The translations under genes were made by a program, and so were the position numbers. Shown here in pieces: positions 1 to 37,307 of a stretch of 64,000 bases of DNA; the stretch's first letter is position 1; each line of letters begins with the position of its first letter. Origin of the DNA: a phage; NCBI GenBank assembly GCA_026188615.1, contig GCA_026188615.1_4525.1; one strand, written 5' to 3'. The notes under the pieces were generated by a model, which saw only the letters and a list, made by a program, of their open reading frames with translations, made no database searches and was not told where the DNA came from.

Positions 1-584
1 ACATTAGCATCAAATACGCAATTATTTGCTTCGACAAGGTCTTCTGACGCTGTAGCATTATAAGCGGCTAAGACAGAATCAAGGTCGTTTGGAATCATGA
101 TAAGAGCATCAAATGTGCCACGACCAAGCATTGGTGCCATTTTAAAACCGAATTCATTACAGAAATCTTGCATTTCATAATCGGTCAAATACGTATTATC
201 ACCACTTTCTGTATTGATAAGGATATCGAACACATAAAAATCTTTTTCACCGTAGTCAACACCTTTCTGGATTCCACCACCGGCGAATTCACCGAATACT
301 TGATATGATACAGCTCGAGCTGTGTACATGAATTCCTGAACGGCTTTAATAGCTTTATCATACTTCTTGAGTACGATTTCATAACCATAAAAATCTTCTG
401 CTGGAAGAATAGGGCCTGTGCGCTTGGCGCATGTGACGTTGTCACGTTCAATTATTAACGAGAAGTTAGTCCCATGGATTTTCTCACGTGCTACCCAAAC
501 ACCAGTAGTCAAACCATTAGTGTAGAGTTTTTCAATAAACTTAGAGTTGTAGTGGTTTTCAAGACTGCTGTATTTCTTAAACAT
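1..584 (-). CDS. rnlB: RNA ligase 2 (Rnl2), N-terminal part; C-terminus lies beyond the window start
   Basis: Minus-strand translation from ATG at 584 reads [21 protein letters not shown]...[14 protein letters not shown], the Rnl2 nucleotidyltransferase N-terminus with the KxHG adenylation-lysine motif; the frame stays open to position 1. Not in the ORF track because it is truncated. Confidence 0.8.
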
Positions 585-619
585 AAATCACCATTATAAA
601 TAATATCAAAATAATTAGC

Positions 620-636
620 AGAGACTCTGTCTCTGA
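620..636 (-). other. Perfect hairpin (cagagac-tct-gtctctg) between rnlB and the upstream ORF
   Basis: 7-bp inverted repeat with 3-nt loop seen directly; function (terminator or processing site) is inferred. Confidence 0.3.
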
Positions 637-700
637 CCCGATGTTTAATTTGAATGGATAGAACCTAGATTCATTATACCATCAAAAAATGTAAAGCATA

Positions 701-952
701 TTAGAACTTGATTTCTATCCAATGACCATCACGCTGGTCGTGATTAATTTTATACTGAAAGCCATTATCACGTAACCACTGCCCGACTTGCTCAGTGATA
801 GTTAAATCATTCTTTGACGGGTAGTACGTGAATTGTGTCTGGCCTTTATCAGCGGCTTTCTCTGCCATCACAGAGAAGTTAGTAATAAAATCACTCAACA
901 AATTAGCTTTAGTGGCCAGAGCCCTTTCTCTTAATTCCTGTGCAAAACTCAT
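701..952 (-). CDS. Hypothetical protein, 83 aa (positional equivalent of T4 24.x ORFs)
   Basis: ORF in track; start overlaps the stop of the upstream ORF (typical coupling); no recognisable motif. Confidence 0.45.
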   Translation of the reverse strand: MSFAQELRERALATKANLLSDFITNFSVMAEKAADKGQTQFTYYPSKNDLTITEQVGQWLRDNGFQYKINHDQRDGHWIEIKF

Positions 953-1149
953 TTCTTCACCTTTTTGTTAATCAAACGTTTACGGTATACAACTTTTTCT
1001 TTTGCTTTAAACTTTGACCGAGCTGTCTCGGCTTTAGTCCATAGTAATCCAACTTCTTTAGGTTGTAAACCAATTTTTTGAGCAATTTCTACGAATGAAA
1101 ATCCCGCCTCATGTAATGTATAAACTTCAACTTCAGCTCTCATAATCAA
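949..1149 (-). CDS. Hypothetical small basic protein, 66 aa, possible helix-turn-helix
   Basis: ORF in track; lysine-rich C-terminus; HTH assignment is a guess from the pattern FVEIAQKIGLQPKEV. Confidence 0.4.
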   Translation of the reverse strand: MIMRAEVEVYTLHEAGFSFVEIAQKIGLQPKEVGLLWTKAETARSKFKAKEKVVYRKRLINKKVKK

Positions 1150-1242: not shown

Positions 1243-2661
1243 TTATGGATATGTATAGATGATACCAGTTTCCAAAGCAGTTTTATGGATGATGTATCCA
1301 TTACGTGATTCTTGAACATCAACTTCTGGATAGTCTTTCATCATCTTCTGAAGCGTATAACGATGCAAGTAATACTTACTATCTGGATCTTCAGTTTTCC
1401 AATCTTTACCTTCTTCAGTCATTTTTTGGATTTCATCCATAACCCACCAACCGCACCAGATGTAAGCTGAAGTACGATGTGGAAGAGGATGAACATAAGG
1501 TAATTCACCTTCTGGTTCTGGAGCAACTTTATCGGTTACCTGAACTTGACCTTCTGCTGTAATAGTTTTGCTATCATAATCAGTAGCAGTAACGACGGCA
1601 GTCACTTCAATAGTTTGACTTCCAATAGATGAGGTATCAACGGTATATACATTAGTTGACCCTTCTACAGGAGAAGAATCTTTCTTCCATGAATACTCAA
1701 TTTGCGCTTCTTCTGGAGCATCAGTGACATTAGCGGTAAATGTAGCCGAAGCATCTTGCTGAACGTTAATAGAAGGAGGAGTCAATGTAACCCGTGGATT
1801 CATTGTCTTCTTATTAACCGTTAATGATACTTCATTCGAAGTAACTTCCTTTGCATCATAATCTGATGCGGTTACTTGGGCTACACATTTAATTCTTTTT
1901 ACTCCACTTGTAGTTGGAGTATAGCTAAATGTAGAGTTAGTTTCTCCACCAACCTGTGAATCATCTACATACCATTGATACGTAGCAGACGCTCCAACCG
2001 GTTGAGAAGCTAAGGCAGCAGTAAATTGAACTGGGGTTCCAATTACTCCAGCTGAAGGACTATTGGGAGTTACTGCCAACGTAGTTGTCTGTGTCTTTTT
2101 ATTAACAGTCAGTGACACTTCATTAGAAGTAACGCTTAGTGCGTCATAATCTGTTGCGGTTACTTGAGCCACACACTTAATTCTTTTTACCCCGCTTTCG
2201 GCAGGAGTGTAATTGAATGTAGCGTTAGTTGCTTCGCCAACAGGAGAATCATCTACATACCATTGATAAGTAGCGTTTGCGCCTGATGGCTGCGAAGCTA
2301 AAGCGGCGGTAAATTCAATAGCTGTTCCTATTACTCCAGCGTCAGGGCTATTAGGAGTTACAGCTAAGGTAGTCGTCTGGGTTTTGTTTTTGACTGTAAT
2401 AGTTGTACTAATTTCAGCTGTTTCAGCTTCACTGTCAGGAACTGGATTTGTTGCAACTACTTTAATAGTTTTTTGTCCAGCAGGACCCTTTAATACATAA
2501 CTAAAAGTTGCTTCAGCTCCATCTTGTGGAACATCATCCACAGACCAAGCATATGTAATAGGTCCATCTCCAGTTTGACCACTGGGTGTAGCAGTAAACT
2601 GCTTAGTCTCATCTATAACTCCAGTAGGTGTTTTAGGAGTTATATCAACTGTAAAAGCCAT
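1243..2661 (-). CDS. hoc: Hoc, highly immunogenic outer capsid protein, 472 aa, with an extra Ig-like domain
   Basis: Repeated Ig-like modules (TLAVTPNSP...YQWYVDD...VKRIKCVAQVTA.DYDA) followed by a conserved capsid-binding C-terminus (IWCGWWVMDEIQKM...YTYP); position between rnlB and inh as in T4. Confidence 0.8.
   Translation of the reverse strand: MAFTVDITPKTPTGVIDETKQFTATPSGQTGDGPITYAWSVDDVPQDGAEATFSYVLKGPAGQKTIKVVATNPVPDSEAETAEISTTITVKNKTQTTTLAVTPNSPDAGVIGTAIEFTAALASQPSGANATYQWYVDDSPVGEATNATFNYTPAESGVKRIKCVAQVTATDYDALSVTSNEVSLTVNKKTQTTTLAVTPNSPSAGVIGTPVQFTAALASQPVGASATYQWYVDDSQVGGETNSTFSYTPTTSGVKRIKCVAQVTASDYDAKEVTSNEVSLTVNKKTMNPRVTLTPPSINVQQDASATFTANVTDAPEEAQIEYSWKKDSSPVEGSTNVYTVDTSSIGSQTIEVTAVVTATDYDSKTITAEGQVQVTDKVAPEPEGELPYVHPLPHRTSAYIWCGWWVMDEIQKMTEEGKDWKTEDPDSKYYLHRYTLQKMMKDYPEVDVQESRNGYIIHKTALETGIIYTYP
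1816..2391 (-). repeat. Tandem duplication of an approx. 288-bp (96-codon) Ig-like domain unit inside hoc
   Basis: Protein residues approx. 91-186 and 187-282 are near-identical; the DNA of the two units is clearly similar but diverged. Confidence 0.7.
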
Positions 2662-29913: not shown

Positions 29914-30416
29914 TTAGAAATATTTTTTGTATGAATTGATTACATTTTGGTCTACATCATTATCAATTTGTGCGACAAGATAAGAACTGATTTCAACTTC
30001 CTGAGGAGCTGCTTGAACTAAATCAGAGTTCAGATATTCACGAATCCATGGAATAGGATGACGAGTTGATACGTCTTTAAGAGGACATGGCAGACCACAA
30101 CTACGCATACGAGACACGGTAAGATAATCCACAAATTCACTTAGGATTTTAACATTTAGACCTGGAAGAGCACCATCTTTAAACAAGTGTTCAGCCCATT
30201 CTTTTTCTTGAGCGTTAACTTCCATGAAAATATCAACTGCTTCTTGTTCACACTCTTGAGCAATTTTGACCCATTCATCACCGTCTTCGCCATCTTGTAA
30301 AGCACGAATAATATATTGAGTGCCCTTAAGGTGGAGCTGTTCATCACGAGCAATGAACTTCATAATCTTGGCATTACCTTCCATGATTTCCATGTTCTTA
30401 TGGAAGTTAAAGGTAC
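29914..30416 (-). CDS. nrdB: Ribonucleotide reductase small subunit NrdB, exon 2
   Basis: After splicing the junction reads FYVSFA-C-TFNFHKNMEIMEGNAK, matching the conserved NrdB FYVSFACSFAF..MEGNAK region; C-terminal tail VAQIDNDVD. Confidence 0.8.
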
Positions 30417-30551
30417 CGTATGTTCGATTGAGCTCGCTAATTCTCAACCCGTTCTCTTATGAACTGCTGCATGTTACCATGCAGTCCAGACTATATCACA
30501 ATCCCGGAGGGATTCTCCCCATTTCGAGTCGCTTGACCCTACGTCCGAAGA

Positions 30552-31361
30552 CTAGTCGTTGAACCTTGCTTTGCAATTGTCGCCGTGCCATCGTTTATAT
30601 GTTGATGGTGATAAATCTTTCTTATCACAATATGGACAATTCAATTGAATTCTATTTGGATTTAATTTACATCTGTCATTATGTTTTAGATAAAATCCAG
30701 GACCTTTACCAATGTGACCACAGAAATCACATGTGATTTCTTTTTGTGCAGGATGGGTCCCGTTCTTAACCATTTCTAATGTTTTTGCTGATGTTCTTTT
30801 CTTATGGTCTTCTGATAAGAAATGATGTGAACCGTCATTTACCCGTTTTGATTGAGTTTCTGACTGCATTTTACCACCGCAAAATACATGAGTACCTTCT
30901 TTTATAGCTGCAATATTGCGTTCTTTAACTTTTGCAATATGCTCAGCTTGTTGAAAATTATGTATACCTAATGCAACTCTATTTAAATTAGATTTACGCT
31001 GTATTTCACCGTCTAAAAGATGAAATGTACCATTTTCTATCTTAGATTTAATAGAGGCAATATTTTTAGCTCGTACTTCAGGGATATTAAAAATCTGGAT
31101 TTCTCTAGATTTTGCGGCTTTAGAAGCTAATTCAGAAATTTCTTCAGGAGAATATTTCATTCTAAGCTTTATAGCATGACAAGCCTGGTAATCTTTTTGA
31201 GCTAAATGTATATCATAATGTTCCTGTATAGAAAGGCACATCAAATTATCTAAATCATTATTTTCACGGTTACCGTCTTTATGATGGATTTCGTATGTTC
31301 TTCCATCAGAATCTTTAGGTATAGGTCCGTTAGCATCTATCCAAATTTTTCTATAGTTCAA
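30552..31361 (-). CDS. I-TevIII: Intron-encoded HNH homing endonuclease (I-TevIII-like), 269 aa
   Basis: HNH motif YEIHHKDGNRENNDLDNLMCLSIQEHYDIH and C-terminal Cys4 zinc fingers; apparent TTG start with SD GAGGA 7 nt upstream (the nearby ATG is out of frame). Confidence 0.75.
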   Translation of the reverse strand: MNYRKIWIDANGPIPKDSDGRTYEIHHKDGNRENNDLDNLMCLSIQEHYDIHLAQKDYQACHAIKLRMKYSPEEISELASKAAKSREIQIFNIPEVRAKNIASIKSKIENGTFHLLDGEIQRKSNLNRVALGIHNFQQAEHIAKVKERNIAAIKEGTHVFCGGKMQSETQSKRVNDGSHHFLSEDHKKRTSAKTLEMVKNGTHPAQKEITCDFCGHIGKGPGFYLKHNDRCKLNPNRIQLNCPYCDKKDLSPSTYKRWHGDNCKARFND

Positions 31362-31388
31362 TTGTGCATCCTCTTAAAAGTATAATCA

Positions 31389-31396
31389 TATTTATA
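31389..31396 (-). promoter_or_regulatory. Late promoter (TATAAATA on the minus strand) inside the intron, 28 bp upstream of the endonuclease ORF
   Basis: Plus strand reads TATTTATA. Confidence 0.45.
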
Positions 31397-31506
31397 TTAT
31401 ACTAATTAAAGGTGCAAGCAAAACCTTGGCTGCTAGTTTTCCTATAAAGGACTTTCCAGCAATTAAAGGAGTTTTCGATAAACGTTACCGTTTAAAGGCG
31501 CATTTT

Positions 31507-32182
31507 ACGCAAAAGATACATAAAAACGAATAGCTTCTAAGGCATTAATAACGTGCAAACAGAGGTAAAGAGACTTCATTAAAGCACGTTTAGCTTCGGC
31601 TTCTTGTTTAATAGCTCGGTTTAAACGAAAGTCGGCATCAGGAGATTCTTTAGCTAGTTCTACAAATTCCTTAGCGTTTTCCCAATAACGAGCTTTAACC
31701 AGAACATCATCATAATATCGTCCGATAGATTCGGCACGCTTCATAATAGCTTCATCTAATACAATCTCATCAAACACCTTCGATGGATCTGTATAAAGAT
31801 TTCGCATAATATGAGTATATGAACGAGAGTGAATAGTTTCACTGAAAGTCCATGTAGCAACCCATGTATCTAATGAAGGGTCTGAAAGCAATGACATAAG
31901 TACCGCAGATGGTGCTCTACCTTGGATAGAATCTAATAATGATTGATACTTAAGGTTGTTGGTAAAGATGTCCTGTTGGAACTGTGGAAGCTTATTAAAC
32001 TGGGCCGAATCCAACATCAAGTTTACTTCCTCGGGACGCCAGAAAAAACTTAGCTGCCGCTCAATGAGTTCTTCAAAAACTTTATGACGCTGAATATCAT
32101 AACGTGCGAGACCAAGACCAGAACCAAAGAACATTGGTTCGTTCAAAACATCGACTTGTTGTGTATTAAAAACTGTACTCAT
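31507..32182 (-). CDS. nrdB: Ribonucleotide reductase small subunit NrdB, exon 1
   Basis: 225 codons of NrdB N-terminus; ends at the 5' splice site after FYVSFA plus one nucleotide. Confidence 0.8.
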
Positions 32183-32877
32183 TTAGAATCCTTAAATTTA
32201 CATTTATCATAATGCCATCTTAGAGCATTGCCTTTATTAACTTTCTTGCCACAATGCGGACAAGGTGGATATTCAGTACTTTGCTTAGTTCTCAAAGAAA
32301 TCAAATCACGAGTTTCTTTAGTATGAGGAACATCTCTTGTTGGAGATATTGTACCATACATAGGATTAAGCACACCTAGTTTAGCTTTTGCTATATTCTT
32401 TTTGGCTTCATCTGATTTAGGTTTTCTCATCTTTTTCTTAGTTTCTTCACTTTTAGCCCTTCCTTTGGTTGCCGCCGATATTTTGTGCTTGGTTTCTTCT
32501 GTTAAATGTAGGCCTGTTTTCGCTTTTGAAATTTTCAGTCTTGTTTCTTCAGAAATGACCATACCTTTGCGAAATTGTGAATTTAACTTCTTTGCATGGG
32601 CATATATTTTAGAATGAACTTTATAATGTCGTTTCTTGGTTCCTTTCATATTGCACATCATGAAAAATGCGAATATAACAGATTTTATCGGATAAATCTT
32701 TGATAAAATAGCATGTGCTATAAAATGCTCTCTAGCTGTTAATTCAACTAAATTTTCTTTATCATCAGAACCTCCTAAACATCTAGGAACTATATGATGA
32801 GTCTCTTTATATTCGGATAAAGGTTCCCGAGCCTTAGCCCGGGAAATTAGGTCGTTATAGATTTTTTGATAATTCAT
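32179..32877 (-). CDS. mobE: Free-standing HNH homing endonuclease (MobE-like)
   Basis: 232 aa; HNH motif HHIVPRCLGGSDDKENLVELTAREHFIAH, repeated basic NUMOD3-like segments, C-terminal CPHCGKK...WHYDKC zinc finger; start overlaps nrdA stop (TAATG) and stop overlaps nrdB start (ATGA). Confidence 0.7.
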   Translation of the reverse strand: MNYQKIYNDLISRAKAREPLSEYKETHHIVPRCLGGSDDKENLVELTAREHFIAHAILSKIYPIKSVIFAFFMMCNMKGTKKRHYKVHSKIYAHAKKLNSQFRKGMVISEETRLKISKAKTGLHLTEETKHKISAATKGRAKSEETKKKMRKPKSDEAKKNIAKAKLGVLNPMYGTISPTRDVPHTKETRDLISLRTKQSTEYPPCPHCGKKVNKGNALRWHYDKCKFKDSK

Positions 32878-35132
32878 TACAATTTACAAGCAGAACAATC
32901 TTCAGCTTTAGGTGTTTCTAATTCATAGTCGTCTGTACCAGACCCATCACGAGTGTTATGATAGTAGAGGTTTTTTCCGCCAAAGTACCAGAAGTAAAGC
33001 AGATCGTCAAGCATTACAGACATTGGCACTTTACCTTTCTCAAATACTGCAGGGTCATAGTAAGTATTAGCAGAAGCAGATTGGCACACCCATTTCAACA
33101 TGATAGCAACTTGGGTCAAATAAGGTTTATTACCTTTCTTAGCAAGTTTCCACGCGTAGTCGTAAAGACTCATGTTATGTTCTATATTAGGAACAACCTG
33201 TCGGAAGTTGCCTTCTTTAGATTCTTTAATACTTACTGGACCGCGTGGGGGCTCAATCCCGTTTGTAGAGTTCGATACTTGACTGCTTGACTCACAAGGC
33301 ATGAGTGCAGACAACGTTGAGTTACGAATTCCATGTTCTTTGAGTTCAGCTCGAAGTTCTTCCCAGTCACAGACGTAGTTCGGGGCCGCGATTTGGTCAA
33401 TCTTTTTATTGTACCAGTCGATAGGTAATTCGCCTCTAGACCATTTAGTGTCTGAATAATACTCGCAAGGTCCTTTTTCTTTGGCGAGTTTGATTGAAGC
33501 TTTGATAAGGCCATATTGCAATCTCTCAAACAATTCATGAGTCAAATCGTTAGCATCTTCATATGAAGCAAAGTTAGAAGCTAACCATGCAGCATAGTTC
33601 GTCACACCAACGCCGAGGTTTCGACGCTTTTTAGCTTTTAAAGCTTCTGGAACAGGATAATCTTGATAGTCTAACAGGTTATCAAGTGCACGTACTTGTA
33701 CTTCAGCAAGTTCATTAATTTTATCTTGGTCTTGCCAATCAAATTTATCTAATACAAAAGCAGATAATGTGCATAAACCAATTTCAGCGTCAGGACCATT
33801 CACATCATTAGTTGGAATAGCGATTTCACAACATAAGTTACTCTGACGAATTGGAGCTTTTTCACGAATAAACGGAGTGTAGTTATTCGTGTTATCAACA
33901 AACTGTGGATAAATTCGAGCAGTACCAGAACGTTCAGTCATGAACAATTCAAAGAGTTCTAGTGCTTTGATTCTTTTCTTTCTGATTGTTGGGTCTTTTT
34001 CAGCTTTCTCATAAAGCTCACGGAATTTATCTTGATCTTCAAAGAACGAGTAGTATAGTTCGCCTGACATTTCGTGAGGGCTAAATAAAGTAATATAATC
34101 ATTTTTACCAAGGCGTTCCATCATAAGGTCATTAATCTGAATTCCGTAGTCCATATGTCGAATACGGTTTTCATCCACGCCTTTGTTATTTTTCAGAACT
34201 AATAGGTTCTCTACTTCTAAGTGCCACATCGGATAATACGCTGTAGCAGCACCACCACGAATACCACCTTGAGAACAAGATTTTACTGCAGTTTGGAAAT
34301 GTTTCCAGAATGGAATAACACCTGTATGTCGAACTTCACCCATACCGATCTTAGAACCTTCTGCACGAAGCATGCCAACGTTGATACCGATACCAGCTCG
34401 TTTAGAAATATATTCAATAATTGATGCTGAAGTTTTGTTAATAGATTTTAACGAATCACCGGCTTCAATAACTACACAACTAGAGAACTGGCGAGTCGGA
34501 GTACGAGCACCTGCCATAATTGGGGTTGGCAATGAAACTTGATGAGTAGAAACAGCATCATAAAAACGAATAATATGTTTCAAACGGTCATGAGTTTCGT
34601 CTTGATGTAAGGCCATACCAATAGCCATGATAGCAAACTGGGGAGTTTCATAAATCTTACCAGTTGTTTTATCTTTAACTAGGTATTTTTCTTTAAGCTG
34701 CATAGCACCAGCATAAGTCAGGTCAAAGTCTCGTTCATGTTTAATCTGTGAATCGAGATAAATGATTTCTTCTGCTGAATATTGAGACAACAGCTCAGGG
34801 TCATATTTGCCTTCATTAACACAGTAAGAAATATGGTCGATAAAAGCAGGCGGTTCAAACTGCCCATATACATCTTTACGAAGTGCAAACATTAGCCCTT
34901 TGGCGGCGACATACTGATAATCGGGTTCTTCGACAGAAATCAAGTTAGCTGCAACTTTAATACAAATCTTCTGGATATCTTTGGTGCTCATCCCATCGTC
35001 AAGATGGGTCTTAATTTCTTCGTACAATTCATATGGGTCGATTTGTGTTCCTTCACATTGCCAAGTTAATACTTGAATAATTTTCTGTGCATCAAAATTT
35101 TGGGATACCCCACTGCTCTTAGTTACTTGCAT
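32877..35132 (-). CDS. nrdA: Ribonucleotide reductase large subunit NrdA
   Basis: 751 aa; ATP-cone N-terminus and active-site blocks (NLCCEIA, PCESSSQVSN); colinear with T4 NrdA. Confidence 0.9.
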   Translation of the reverse strand: MQVTKSSGVSQNFDAQKIIQVLTWQCEGTQIDPYELYEEIKTHLDDGMSTKDIQKICIKVAANLISVEEPDYQYVAAKGLMFALRKDVYGQFEPPAFIDHISYCVNEGKYDPELLSQYSAEEIIYLDSQIKHERDFDLTYAGAMQLKEKYLVKDKTTGKIYETPQFAIMAIGMALHQDETHDRLKHIIRFYDAVSTHQVSLPTPIMAGARTPTRQFSSCVVIEAGDSLKSINKTSASIIEYISKRAGIGINVGMLRAEGSKIGMGEVRHTGVIPFWKHFQTAVKSCSQGGIRGGAATAYYPMWHLEVENLLVLKNNKGVDENRIRHMDYGIQINDLMMERLGKNDYITLFSPHEMSGELYYSFFEDQDKFRELYEKAEKDPTIRKKRIKALELFELFMTERSGTARIYPQFVDNTNNYTPFIREKAPIRQSNLCCEIAIPTNDVNGPDAEIGLCTLSAFVLDKFDWQDQDKINELAEVQVRALDNLLDYQDYPVPEALKAKKRRNLGVGVTNYAAWLASNFASYEDANDLTHELFERLQYGLIKASIKLAKEKGPCEYYSDTKWSRGELPIDWYNKKIDQIAAPNYVCDWEELRAELKEHGIRNSTLSALMPCESSSQVSNSTNGIEPPRGPVSIKESKEGNFRQVVPNIEHNMSLYDYAWKLAKKGNKPYLTQVAIMLKWVCQSASANTYYDPAVFEKGKVPMSVMLDDLLYFWYFGGKNLYYHNTRDGSGTDDYELETPKAEDCSACKL

Positions 35133-35219
35133 ATATTCCTCAGTATAGGTTGATAGACATTACTCCAAACGGGATAGTATTTATCCCGTTAATTTATTAT
35201 ACACTTTTAAACTGAAGCG

Positions 35220-35474
35220 TTAATTATTCTTAGCAATAATTTCTTTGTATTCTTTAGGAGTCAAGACCGTAATATCGAAATAAACCAATGGTTCTTTTTC
35301 CGTACCGTAACCACCACAAAATTCACGATATTCATAAATTCGTTCATGTGAATAACAAACGAATCGTTCACCTTTAACTGTGATTTCACTATTTGGTGAA
35401 GGGATATCTAGTTCGGTAGGATTTTTCATTTCAAAAATTGTGGTGCCATATGAATTAATAAAACGTAAAATCAT
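35220..35474 (-). CDS. Hypothetical protein, 84 aa
   Basis: ORF in track. Confidence 0.45.
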   Translation of the reverse strand: MILRFINSYGTTIFEMKNPTELDIPSPNSEITVKGERFVCYSHERIYEYREFCGGYGTEKEPLVYFDITVLTPKEYKEIIAKNN

Positions 35475-35475
35475 T

Positions 35476-36336
35476 TTATACCGCCATTTTAGCTTTGATA
35501 GCTGGATGTGATTCGTAATTTTTAAGAACGAAATCAGAATGTGTCATCGTTCCAGTAACCCAGTCCATTTGGATTTTTGTAGGCCAATTCTCAAAATTAC
35601 TAGGCCAATTAATTTCAAGAGAACACAACTCTTTAGGTTCACGACGAAGAACTTCTTTGCATTGTTCTACATGATTGCTGTAGATATGCGTGTTGCCGCC
35701 TGAGAACACTAAATCACCCGGGATAAGGTTACACATCTTCGCTACAATATGCGTCAAGGCGGCGTACGAGGCGATGTTGAACGGCAAGCCCAAGAAAACA
35801 TCTACACTGCGTTGATACCATTGTAAATCAAGATGTCCATTACGCACATTAAATTGATAGAACATATGACAAGGAGGAAGAGCCATTTGGTCAATTTCGG
35901 CAGGGTTCCATGCAGAAACTATTTGACGACGGTCAGTTGGTAATTTTTTAATACGGTTGATTGTTTCAACCAATTGGTCCACACCACCAAAATCTCGCCA
36001 TTGCTTACCATAAATAGGACCAAGTTCGCCACTATGATAACCAAGGTCTTTTGCCTGATTTTCATAGTTGTCGTCCCAAATAGTTTTGCCTTCAATTAGA
36101 CTACCATGAGTACGAATACGCAAATCATTAACATTGGTAGAACCAGACATGAACCACAGTAGTTCGGCAATACAAGCTTTCCATGCTAATTTCTTAGTTG
36201 TTACTGCAGGGAATCCTTTAGTCAGGTCCCAACGTAATTTAGTTCCGAACAGGGCAATTGTTCCTGTGCCTGTACGGTCGTCTGTTTCATAGCCGTTTTC
36301 AAGGATATTTTTAATTAAATCTTGATATTGTTTCAT
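35476..36336 (-). CDS. td: Thymidylate synthase, uninterrupted (no intron)
   Basis: 286 aa continuous ORF; active-site region ALPPCHMFYQF; full length equals T4 Td, so no intron is present. Confidence 0.9.
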   Translation of the reverse strand: MKQYQDLIKNILENGYETDDRTGTGTIALFGTKLRWDLTKGFPAVTTKKLAWKACIAELLWFMSGSTNVNDLRIRTHGSLIEGKTIWDDNYENQAKDLGYHSGELGPIYGKQWRDFGGVDQLVETINRIKKLPTDRRQIVSAWNPAEIDQMALPPCHMFYQFNVRNGHLDLQWYQRSVDVFLGLPFNIASYAALTHIVAKMCNLIPGDLVFSGGNTHIYSNHVEQCKEVLRREPKELCSLEINWPSNFENWPTKIQMDWVTGTMTHSDFVLKNYESHPAIKAKMAV

Positions 36337-36349
36337 TTAGCACCTATAA

Positions 36350-37307
<958 letters not shown>

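Follow-up and report, generated by a model that had tools for sequence, protein, structure and literature searches.

Free-standing homing endonuclease genes between nrdA and nrdB of T-even phages are best known from mobE of T4, whose position, regulation, target and effect on the adjacent intron were described by Wilson and Edgell in 2009 (PMC2790892) and in a 2010 review (PMC2988022). In T4, mobE is promoterless and is co-transcribed with nrdA, a hairpin just after its AUG terminates 30-50% of the transcripts, and its 3′ end holds the nrdB middle promoter (PMC2790892). The start codon lies in a UAAUGA arrangement with the nrdA stop, and translation is probably coupled (PMC2988022). The MobE nick was mapped to nt 122-126 of T2 nrdB, and codon 42 of nrdB is AAG in mobE-less phages and variable in carriers (PMC2790892). 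T4 mobE shows super-Mendelian inheritance that depends on its HNH motif, and it also drives the inheritance of the adjacent, defunct I-TevIII intron, over a co-conversion range of ~2 kb, though attempts to demonstrate activity of the protein in vitro and to clone the gene failed (PMC2790892). The intron endonuclease I-TevIII was characterised in phage RB3. As a dimer it makes a double-strand break (DSB) with 2-nt 3′ overhangs at the intron insertion site, its residues H26/H27, N39 and H48 were shown to be catalytic, and a CX2CX12-13HX3C motif was defined for both of its fingers, for which zinc binding was shown (PMC1865063). In other phages the nrdA/nrdB slot is used by another endonuclease, Hef (PMC2988022).

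Here we analysed a 64,000-nt stretch of phage DNA (hereafter the window). It was 97-98% identical to phages WFbE185, KAW3E185, mogra and JK45 over its first 25 kb and the nrd region, and its source is a T4-like (Tequatrovirus/Mosigvirus-type) coliphage segment. Roughly 1000 T4-like genomes matched this region. Every gene near mobE is carried on the minus strand, in the order frd, a 115-aa ORF, td, an 84-aa ORF, nrdA and mobE, followed by nrdB exon 1, the intron with a 269-aa ORF, nrdB exon 2, denA and rnlA. The nrdA gene was 98-100% identical to the annotated nrdA of JK45, KAW3E185 and mogra. The coordinates of all features are collected in Table 1.

Table 1. Features of the nrdA-mobE-nrdB region of the window, in minus-strand order.
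Feature	Position	Strand	Basis
nrdA, class Ia ribonucleotide reductase large subunit, 751 aa	32877..35132	-	ORF list
UAAUGA, tandem nrdA stops overlapping the mobE AUG	32874..32879	-	sequence read; no Shine-Dalgarno upstream
mobE, T4-type allele, 232-aa free-standing HNH homing endonuclease	32179..32877	-	homology, domains, overlaps
Intragenic terminator hairpin (predicted), 9-bp stem, 4-nt loop, then CCUUUAU	32824..32845	-	RNA fold
HNH catalytic motif, aa 21-55: H27 H28 ... N42 ... H51 ... H55	32713..32817	-	Pfam PF01844
NUMOD3-type basic repeats, aa 106-198, presumed DNA-binding	32284..32562	-	Pfam PF07460
nrdB middle promoter (predicted) inside the mobE 3′ end	32206..32229	-	alignment to the promoter annotated in X04140 (T4)
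C-terminal CX2CX12HX3C (Cys3His) zinc finger, predicted	32200..32262	-	translation, BLASTP
nrdB ribosome-binding site AGGA, inside mobE, identical to T4	32189..32192	-	alignment to X04140
nrdB exon 1	31507..32182	-	splice junction from alignment to intronless mogra nrdB
MobE nick-site equivalent, nrdB codons 38-42, block CTC ATT GAG CGG, presumed self-immunity	32057..32071	-	alignment
nrdB group I intron, 1090 nt, last exon base U, last intron base G	30417..31506	-	alignment to intronless mogra nrdB
Full-length I-TevIII, 269 aa, TTG start, HNH + two CCHC fingers	30552..31361	-	PHROG 12324
nrdB exon 2	29914..30416	-	ORF + alignment to intronless mogra nrdB

A sequence-only reading of the window had proposed that a 232-aa ORF between nrdA and nrdB is a free-standing HNH endonuclease embedded in the nrd operon like mobE of T4. 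The ORF, its length and its ATG start were confirmed, and its strand, which that reading left unstated, is minus. The kinship with mobE held as well, with the same slot, overlaps and protein cluster and with 94% identity to T4 MobE in a full-length protein alignment. The protein matched PHROG 655, a homing endonuclease family (E=4e-65). A megablast search of 50,697 phage records with the gene returned matches in 121, 20 of which covered at least 80% of the ORF. The best nucleotide match was phage ECO4 (95.4%), and the T4 match, annotated “mobE: homing endonuclease” and lying between nrdA and nrdB, was 93.3% identical across all 699 nt. Since the DNA is 93-95% identical over its full length to annotated mobE genes, the ORF is not a chance one. 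At the protein level, identity was 96% to ECO4, 93% to KAW3E185 and 75% to the shorter T6 allele. An identical MobE protein has already been deposited (HCS4493022.1, encoded on a contig of 171,642 bp), and its 90% cluster includes P32283 (MOBE_BPT4) and the proteins of RB2, ECO4 and mogra. Corrected T4 genomes annotate mobE as 699 nt with the same 1-nt and 4-nt overlaps. The old T4 reference NC_000866 has mobE (141 aa) and nrdB.1 as separate pieces, because the matched stretch there is 701 nt rather than 699 nt. As judged by these alignments, the gene is an orthologue of T4 mobE, a conserved copy in the usual nrdA/nrdB slot.

The domain structure was largely as the sequence-only reading had described it. 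The N-terminal HNH motif matched PF01844 above the cut-off (E=4.6e-5, 23.9 bits against 21.4). Residues H27, H28, N42, H51 and H55 were invariant across all aligned alleles, including that of RB3 with its unrelated C-terminus, so that the loss of catalytic His or Asn residues, which the reading had named as a possible objection, was not seen. These residues line up with the catalytic H26/H27, N39 and H48 of I-TevIII. The NUMOD3-like repeats were also borne out, PF07460 being matched in three stretches (E=9.6e-12, 45.1 bits against a cut-off of 20.4); about two further degenerate repeats of this type were judged by eye. The C-terminal finger had been called a Cys4 finger similar to that of the intron endonuclease. 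The likeness to I-TevIII was recovered (BLASTP against its second finger, E=4e-4), but the Cys4 label was wrong. The C-terminal 30 aa hold only three Cys, and the predicted ligands are C206-x2-C209-x12-H222-x3-C226, with His222 in place of a fourth Cys. Alignment of the whole protein to I-TevIII confined the likeness to this finger and to the HNH N-terminus (BLASTP E=0.016). A single-sequence AlphaFold2 model of MobE was unusable (mean pLDDT 48.5, pTM 0.20), and PDB sequence searches with MobE and with a five-sequence profile turned up no close solved relative. The one hit (E=0.17 and 0.056, respectively) was a group II intron maturase, matched marginally in the HNH region.

Both codon overlaps claimed for the gene were found on the minus strand. 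At the 5′ end, TAATGA reads at 32879..32874, where the nrdA stop TAA (32879-32877) and the mobE ATG (32877-32875) share one base. At the 3′ end, ATGA reads at 32182..32179, where the nrdB ATG (32182-32180) overlaps the mobE TGA (32181-32179). The UAAUGA overlap without a Shine-Dalgarno sequence implies that mobE is probably coupled translationally to nrdA. No strong sigma-70-like site was found directly upstream of mobE on the minus strand, and the nrdA promoters are expected to drive the gene.

The hairpin near the start of mobE (-15.9 kcal/mol, z=-2.85) folded into the same structure in T4, T6 and KAW3E185. Relative to T4, one A-U pair is G-U here and there is one change in the loop. A simple terminator scan did not flag it because its U tract is short, and it was recovered by direct folding. 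The MotA box of the predicted embedded nrdB promoter is AATGCTCTA (32221..32229, minus strand) and its T4 counterpart is AATGCTTTA. The single substitution between them (TGCTCTA here, TGCTTTA in T4) is common to ECO4 and mogra. The predicted -10 element, TATGAT (32206..32211, minus strand), is identical to T4. From its sequence, this appears to be a known gene of a known kind in a known place, with every published sequence-level hallmark present and the MotA box differing by one substitution.

Near-identical relatives differ in the presence of the gene. In JK45, G2469 and 348Ecol098PP the mobE site is occupied by a 54-nt spacer, with flanks 97-98% identical to those of the window. Sliding-window identity revealed a mosaic. 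The nrdA gene and most of nrdB were JK45/KAW3E185-like (98-100%), and mobE was 92-98% identical to T4-type alleles. ECO4, which has a T4-like backbone, resembled the window over ~250 nt at the 3′ end of nrdA and over the initial ~60 nt of nrdB, and in the 3′ third of mobE it was 100% identical to the window. We interpret the ECO4 pattern as a natural co-conversion footprint, as expected from homing with limited co-conversion. Compared with five other T4-type alleles, mobE of the window gave dN/dS values of 0.10-0.14 (about 0.11), and the gene is under purifying selection.

At the equivalent of the T4 nick site, codons 39-42 of the window nrdB read CTC ATT GAG CGG, as in T4. The corresponding codons are CTT ATC GAA AAG in JK45, G2469 and 348Ecol098PP, three mobE-less phages that otherwise match the window at 97-100% identity in this region. 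Codon 42 was CGG in all six T4-type carriers and AAG in all four close mobE-less relatives, a small, author-chosen and phylogenetically non-independent sample. The pattern agrees with Figure 8 of PMC2790892. A scan of IMG/VR with NrdB exon 1 as the query gave 28 loci, mostly more distant, of which 26 were in register. A T4-type mobE was found in none of the 28, so that only mobE-less controls were gained. Lys was encoded at codon 42 in 25 of the 26 in-register loci without a T4-type mobE; the exception, the mobE-less locus L016, has Arg (CGT). Carriers of T6-type and RB3-type alleles also have Lys at this codon, and CGG is therefore specific to the T4-type allele.

The T4-like block in nrdB is short. 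It spans four codons (nt 112-126), is flanked on both sides by recipient-type nrdB, and is shorter still in mogra; further downstream the window nrdB is 100% JK45-like. It is possible, although we advance this tentatively, that self-immunity to T4-type MobE is determined by as little as nt 117 together with nt 123-125, and that this determinant was fixed by post-invasion selection or by very short conversion patches rather than by contiguous co-conversion. If this were true, the nucleotides that set the cleavage specificity of MobE, an enzyme refractory to study in vitro, would be delineated by natural mosaics such as the window.

The nrdB gene is interrupted at 31506/31507. The intron was delimited through alignment to an intronless nrdB because Rfam gave only a weak, sub-threshold match: nothing was found in the whole window at the gathering threshold, and a permissive search matched RF00028 at 30467..30707 (36.3 bits, E=5e-7), below the gathering score. 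The I-TevIII protein matched PHROG 12324 over all of its length (1-269/269, E=2e-193) and was 100% identical to that of JK45. I-TevIII of T4 is truncated, whereas the copy in the window is intact. The nick-site equivalent lies ~550 nt from the intron insertion site, well within the ~2-kb co-conversion range of T4. RB3, KAW3E185, ELT1 and HY03 also carry mobE together with full-length I-TevIII, and the pairing of the two intact endonucleases is already known.

The sequence-only reading had placed the intron endonuclease 1.3 kb from mobE. This distance is only approximate, as the I-TevIII ORF lies 818 nt past the mobE stop and the two starts are ~1.5 kb apart. Its statement that two HNH endonucleases occur within 2.3 kb is accurate (32877-30552). 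The further idea of an endonuclease hotspot with marker exclusion is correct and has already been published (PMC2790892, PMC2988022), and our survey of slot occupants agrees with it. The nrdA/nrdB slot held T4-type, T6-type or RB3-type (HNH + NUMOD1) MobE, short inserts or nothing, and in further cases an unrelated homing endonuclease of 520-530 aa (PHROG 3339) with weak matches to DUF559/Vsr-like nucleases.

The analysis showed that the gene is orthologous to T4 mobE, that its motifs are intact and its regulatory elements conserved, that nrdB bears the immune patch, that mobE is under purifying selection and that near-identical relatives differ in whether they carry it. We consider it very probable that the window holds a T4-type mobE allele, a selfish HNH homing endonuclease gene with T4-like expression, action and self-protection. 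Nicking, homing and regulation by mobE of this phage are inferred from the experiments in T4. Having neither a promoter nor a ribosome-binding site of its own, mobE would be transcribed from the nrdA promoters and translated through the UAAUGA coupling, and its expression would be kept down by the weak terminator hairpin 30 nt into the gene. The mobE 3′ end appears to have absorbed the middle promoter and ribosome-binding site of nrdB, and deletion of mobE would thereby be penalised. During co-infection with a mobE-less relative, MobE would bind the conserved FFWRPEE-coding stretch of the rival nrdB and nick the non-coding strand ~120 nt into that gene. Recombinational repair from the carrier genome would then copy mobE and flanking markers into the rival, and the intron with I-TevIII, ~550 nt away, could travel along with mobE. 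In the carrier, substitutions around codon 42 (CGG in place of AAG) presumably shield nrdB from the enzyme.

An alternative to nicking is that MobE makes a DSB, perhaps as a dimer joined through the zinc-finger region in the manner of I-TevIII, and homing would then start from the break. Its finger is of the type (CX2CX12HX3C) found in the I-TevIII region mapped as the dimer interface (PMC1865063). When T4 was crossed with T2, the polymorphisms of the progeny were compatible with DSB repair, and the authors left a DSB possible (PMC2790892). [quoted passage not shown] MobE also has one finger and not two, and the I-TevIII dimer interface needed the C-terminal ~75 aa with both fingers (PMC1865063). 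We therefore regard a DSB as unlikely. A different doubt concerns whether MobE itself cuts. Wilson and Edgell raised the idea that nrdB is nicked by another nuclease of the phage, which MobE would target or regulate, in view of the failed attempts at in vitro activity and cloning (PMC2790892). Deletion of the HNH motif in T4 nevertheless abolished the nick and lowered inheritance (PMC2790892), and the HNH residues are invariant even among those alleles compared here that have exchanged their C-terminal domains, which is what a catalytic module would be expected to show. Such a role is highly improbable, marginally more so than the loss of function considered next.

The placement of the predicted nrdB promoter and ribosome-binding site inside mobE, where a deletion would carry a penalty, would also suit a domesticated remnant, kept mainly for its nrd signals (terminator, promoter and ribosome-binding site) and with a nuclease that is inactive or immobile in this phage. 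I-TevIII of T4 shows that defunct endonucleases can persist (PMC2790892). A mere promoter carrier, however, would not need a conserved 232-aa reading frame, and dN/dS was about 0.11 across the whole ORF, the HNH and finger regions included. No catalytic residue or zinc ligand has been lost, nrdB retains the immune patch and ECO4 bears what appears to be a natural co-conversion footprint, all of which makes a remnant very improbable. Unrelated endonucleases occupy the same slot in other phages, so an ORF of another family, such as Hef or the 520-530-aa endonuclease, could have been expected here. This was rejected on the 94% full-length identity to T4 MobE. The 530-aa endonuclease in particular was ruled out because it matches PHROG 3339 and showed no tblastn similarity to MobE. 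The reading as a T4-type mobE allele is the one we retain.

Beyond a correct annotation the value of the window is small, as it adds one more natural example and not a new kind of system. Its clean gene-conversion footprints do provide comparative data for narrowing down the nucleotides involved in MobE immunity and recognition.

Among the described systems, I-TevIII of RB3 and MobE have in common an HNH N-terminus starting with MNY(Q/R)KI, the CX2CX12-13HX3C type of finger and nrdB as the target. Unlike MobE, I-TevIII is intron-encoded, has two fingers and lacks NUMOD3 repeats, and the similarity between the two proteins is limited to short motifs. The RB3 nrd locus (AY262130) likewise has a free-standing HNH gene in the nrdA/nrdB slot and a full-length, 269-aa I-TevIII in the nrdB intron. 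RB3 MobE, however, has only the N-terminal HNH module of ~57 aa in common with the window protein (43% identity overall). Its C-terminus contains NUMOD1 in place of NUMOD3 and the zinc finger, and codon 42 of RB3 nrdB is AAG. The MobE of T6 and HY03 (213 aa) occupies the same slot and is near-identical in its N-terminal 55 aa and its C-terminal ~80 aa, which include the finger. Its middle third is divergent and shorter, with 75% identity overall, and the corresponding nrdB genes have AAA or AAG at codon 42 and TCT at codon 43. Closest is T4 MobE (P32283; 232 aa in MT984581 and HM137666), with the same length, slot, and UAAUGA and AUGA overlaps. The T4 locus also has the internal terminator hairpin and CGG at codon 42, and its embedded nrdB promoter and ribosome-binding site have predicted counterparts in the window. 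The window protein differs from T4 MobE at 14 residues, with S154, D155, K164 and L167 forming a small cluster (aa 154-167), and lies in a JK45/Mosigvirus-like genomic background, whereas that of T4 MobE is T4-like.

An apparent trace of mobE movement lies in ECO4, a related phage compared with the window over 32140..33125. Its backbone is T4-like, whereas nrdA resembles the window across some 250 nt at its 3′ end, the 3′ third of mobE is 100% identical to that of the window, and the first ~60 nt of nrdB are again window-like. This window-like stretch looks like a natural co-conversion tract with mobE at its centre, spanning genus-level lineages. In the window itself, the T4-like block at the equivalent of the MobE nick site in nrdB is a short patch, with flanks that resemble JK45, a near relative lacking mobE, on either side. 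The carrier-type block of mogra nrdB stops directly after CGG. The nrdB sites separating phages with T4-type mobE from non-carriers narrow to approximately nt 117 and 123-125.

MobE alleles differ in what follows their N-terminal portion. The RB3 protein labelled MobE shares only its first ~57 aa, corresponding to the HNH module, with T4-type MobE, and its C-terminus is different and contains NUMOD1. In the T6 allele it is the middle third that differs from the T4 type. MobE alleles appear to have arisen by retaining a constant HNH head and swapping the domains behind it. Within the 90% cluster to which the MobE product belongs, several proteins are labelled as those of Enterococcus faecalis, Salmonella enterica or E. 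coli. These were located on short contigs or on contigs of ~170 kb, and are most likely T4-like phage DNA inside bacterial assemblies and not bacterial genes.

Other endonucleases were found near the nrd genes in T4-like contigs from IMG/VR. In two of these (L016 and L018), the slot between nrdA and nrdB is occupied by a different ORF, which matched PHROG 3339 (“homing endonuclease”, E=5e-152) and had weak, sub-threshold Pfam matches to REase_MTES_1575 and DUF559 (Vsr-like). This ORF may be of the Hef type named in a review (PMC2988022). In L016, nrdB codon 42 is Arg (CGT) and I-TevIII is truncated and T4-like. In a third contig (L032), a further endonuclease of the HNH/NUMOD3 type was situated 3′ of nrdB; it shares 38% identity with MobE across 230 aa. 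In the window, the start codon of I-TevIII, the nrdB intron endonuclease, is preceded at seven bases by AAGAGGA and at ~30 nt by a late-promoter-like sequence, TATAAATA. Some database records give I-TevIII as a shorter, 690-nt CDS with an internal start.

Coordinates of the features discussed
Feature	Sequence	Position	Strand	Remark
T4-like block CTC ATT GAG CGG	window	32057..32071, within 31983..32182		nrdB codons 38-42
I-TevIII start region	window	31361..31400	minus	TTG start codon
MobE allele comparison loci	L010 (RB3 AY262130)	266..997		
	L023	2770..3500		
	L035	2779..3183		
ORF in place of mobE	L016	1909..3501		520-530 aa
	L018	1940..3499		520-530 aa
HNH/NUMOD3-type endonuclease	L032	5110..5694		
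Hoc-like head decoration protein	window	1243..2661		472 aa
Perfect inverted repeat	window	35168..35190		10 bp; td-nrdA spacer
td-nrdA interval	window	35133..35475		84-aa ORF (PHROG 2458)
td (thymidylate synthase)	window	35476..36336		uninterrupted 286-aa ORF
ORF between td and frd	window	36350..36697		115 aa
frd	window	36687..37304		205 aa

Outside the nrd genes, the Hoc-like gene is only 1131 nt (376 aa) in mogra. Since the BLAST segments overlap, we suggest that the longer window gene would have one more ~300-nt repeat unit, equivalent to one additional Ig-like domain. The frd-td interval of the window holds an ORF of PHROG 1928 (function unknown), unlike in mogra, where td abuts frd directly. 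The window frd allele was too divergent to produce a BLASTN match to mogra frd at 1e-20. Between td and nrdA the window has a single ORF, whereas KAW3E185, another related phage, has an additional 306-nt ORF and T4 has nrdA.1 and nrdA.2. Finally, as the td ORF is continuous, the window phage possesses neither the td intron nor I-TevI, both of which are present in T4 and T6.
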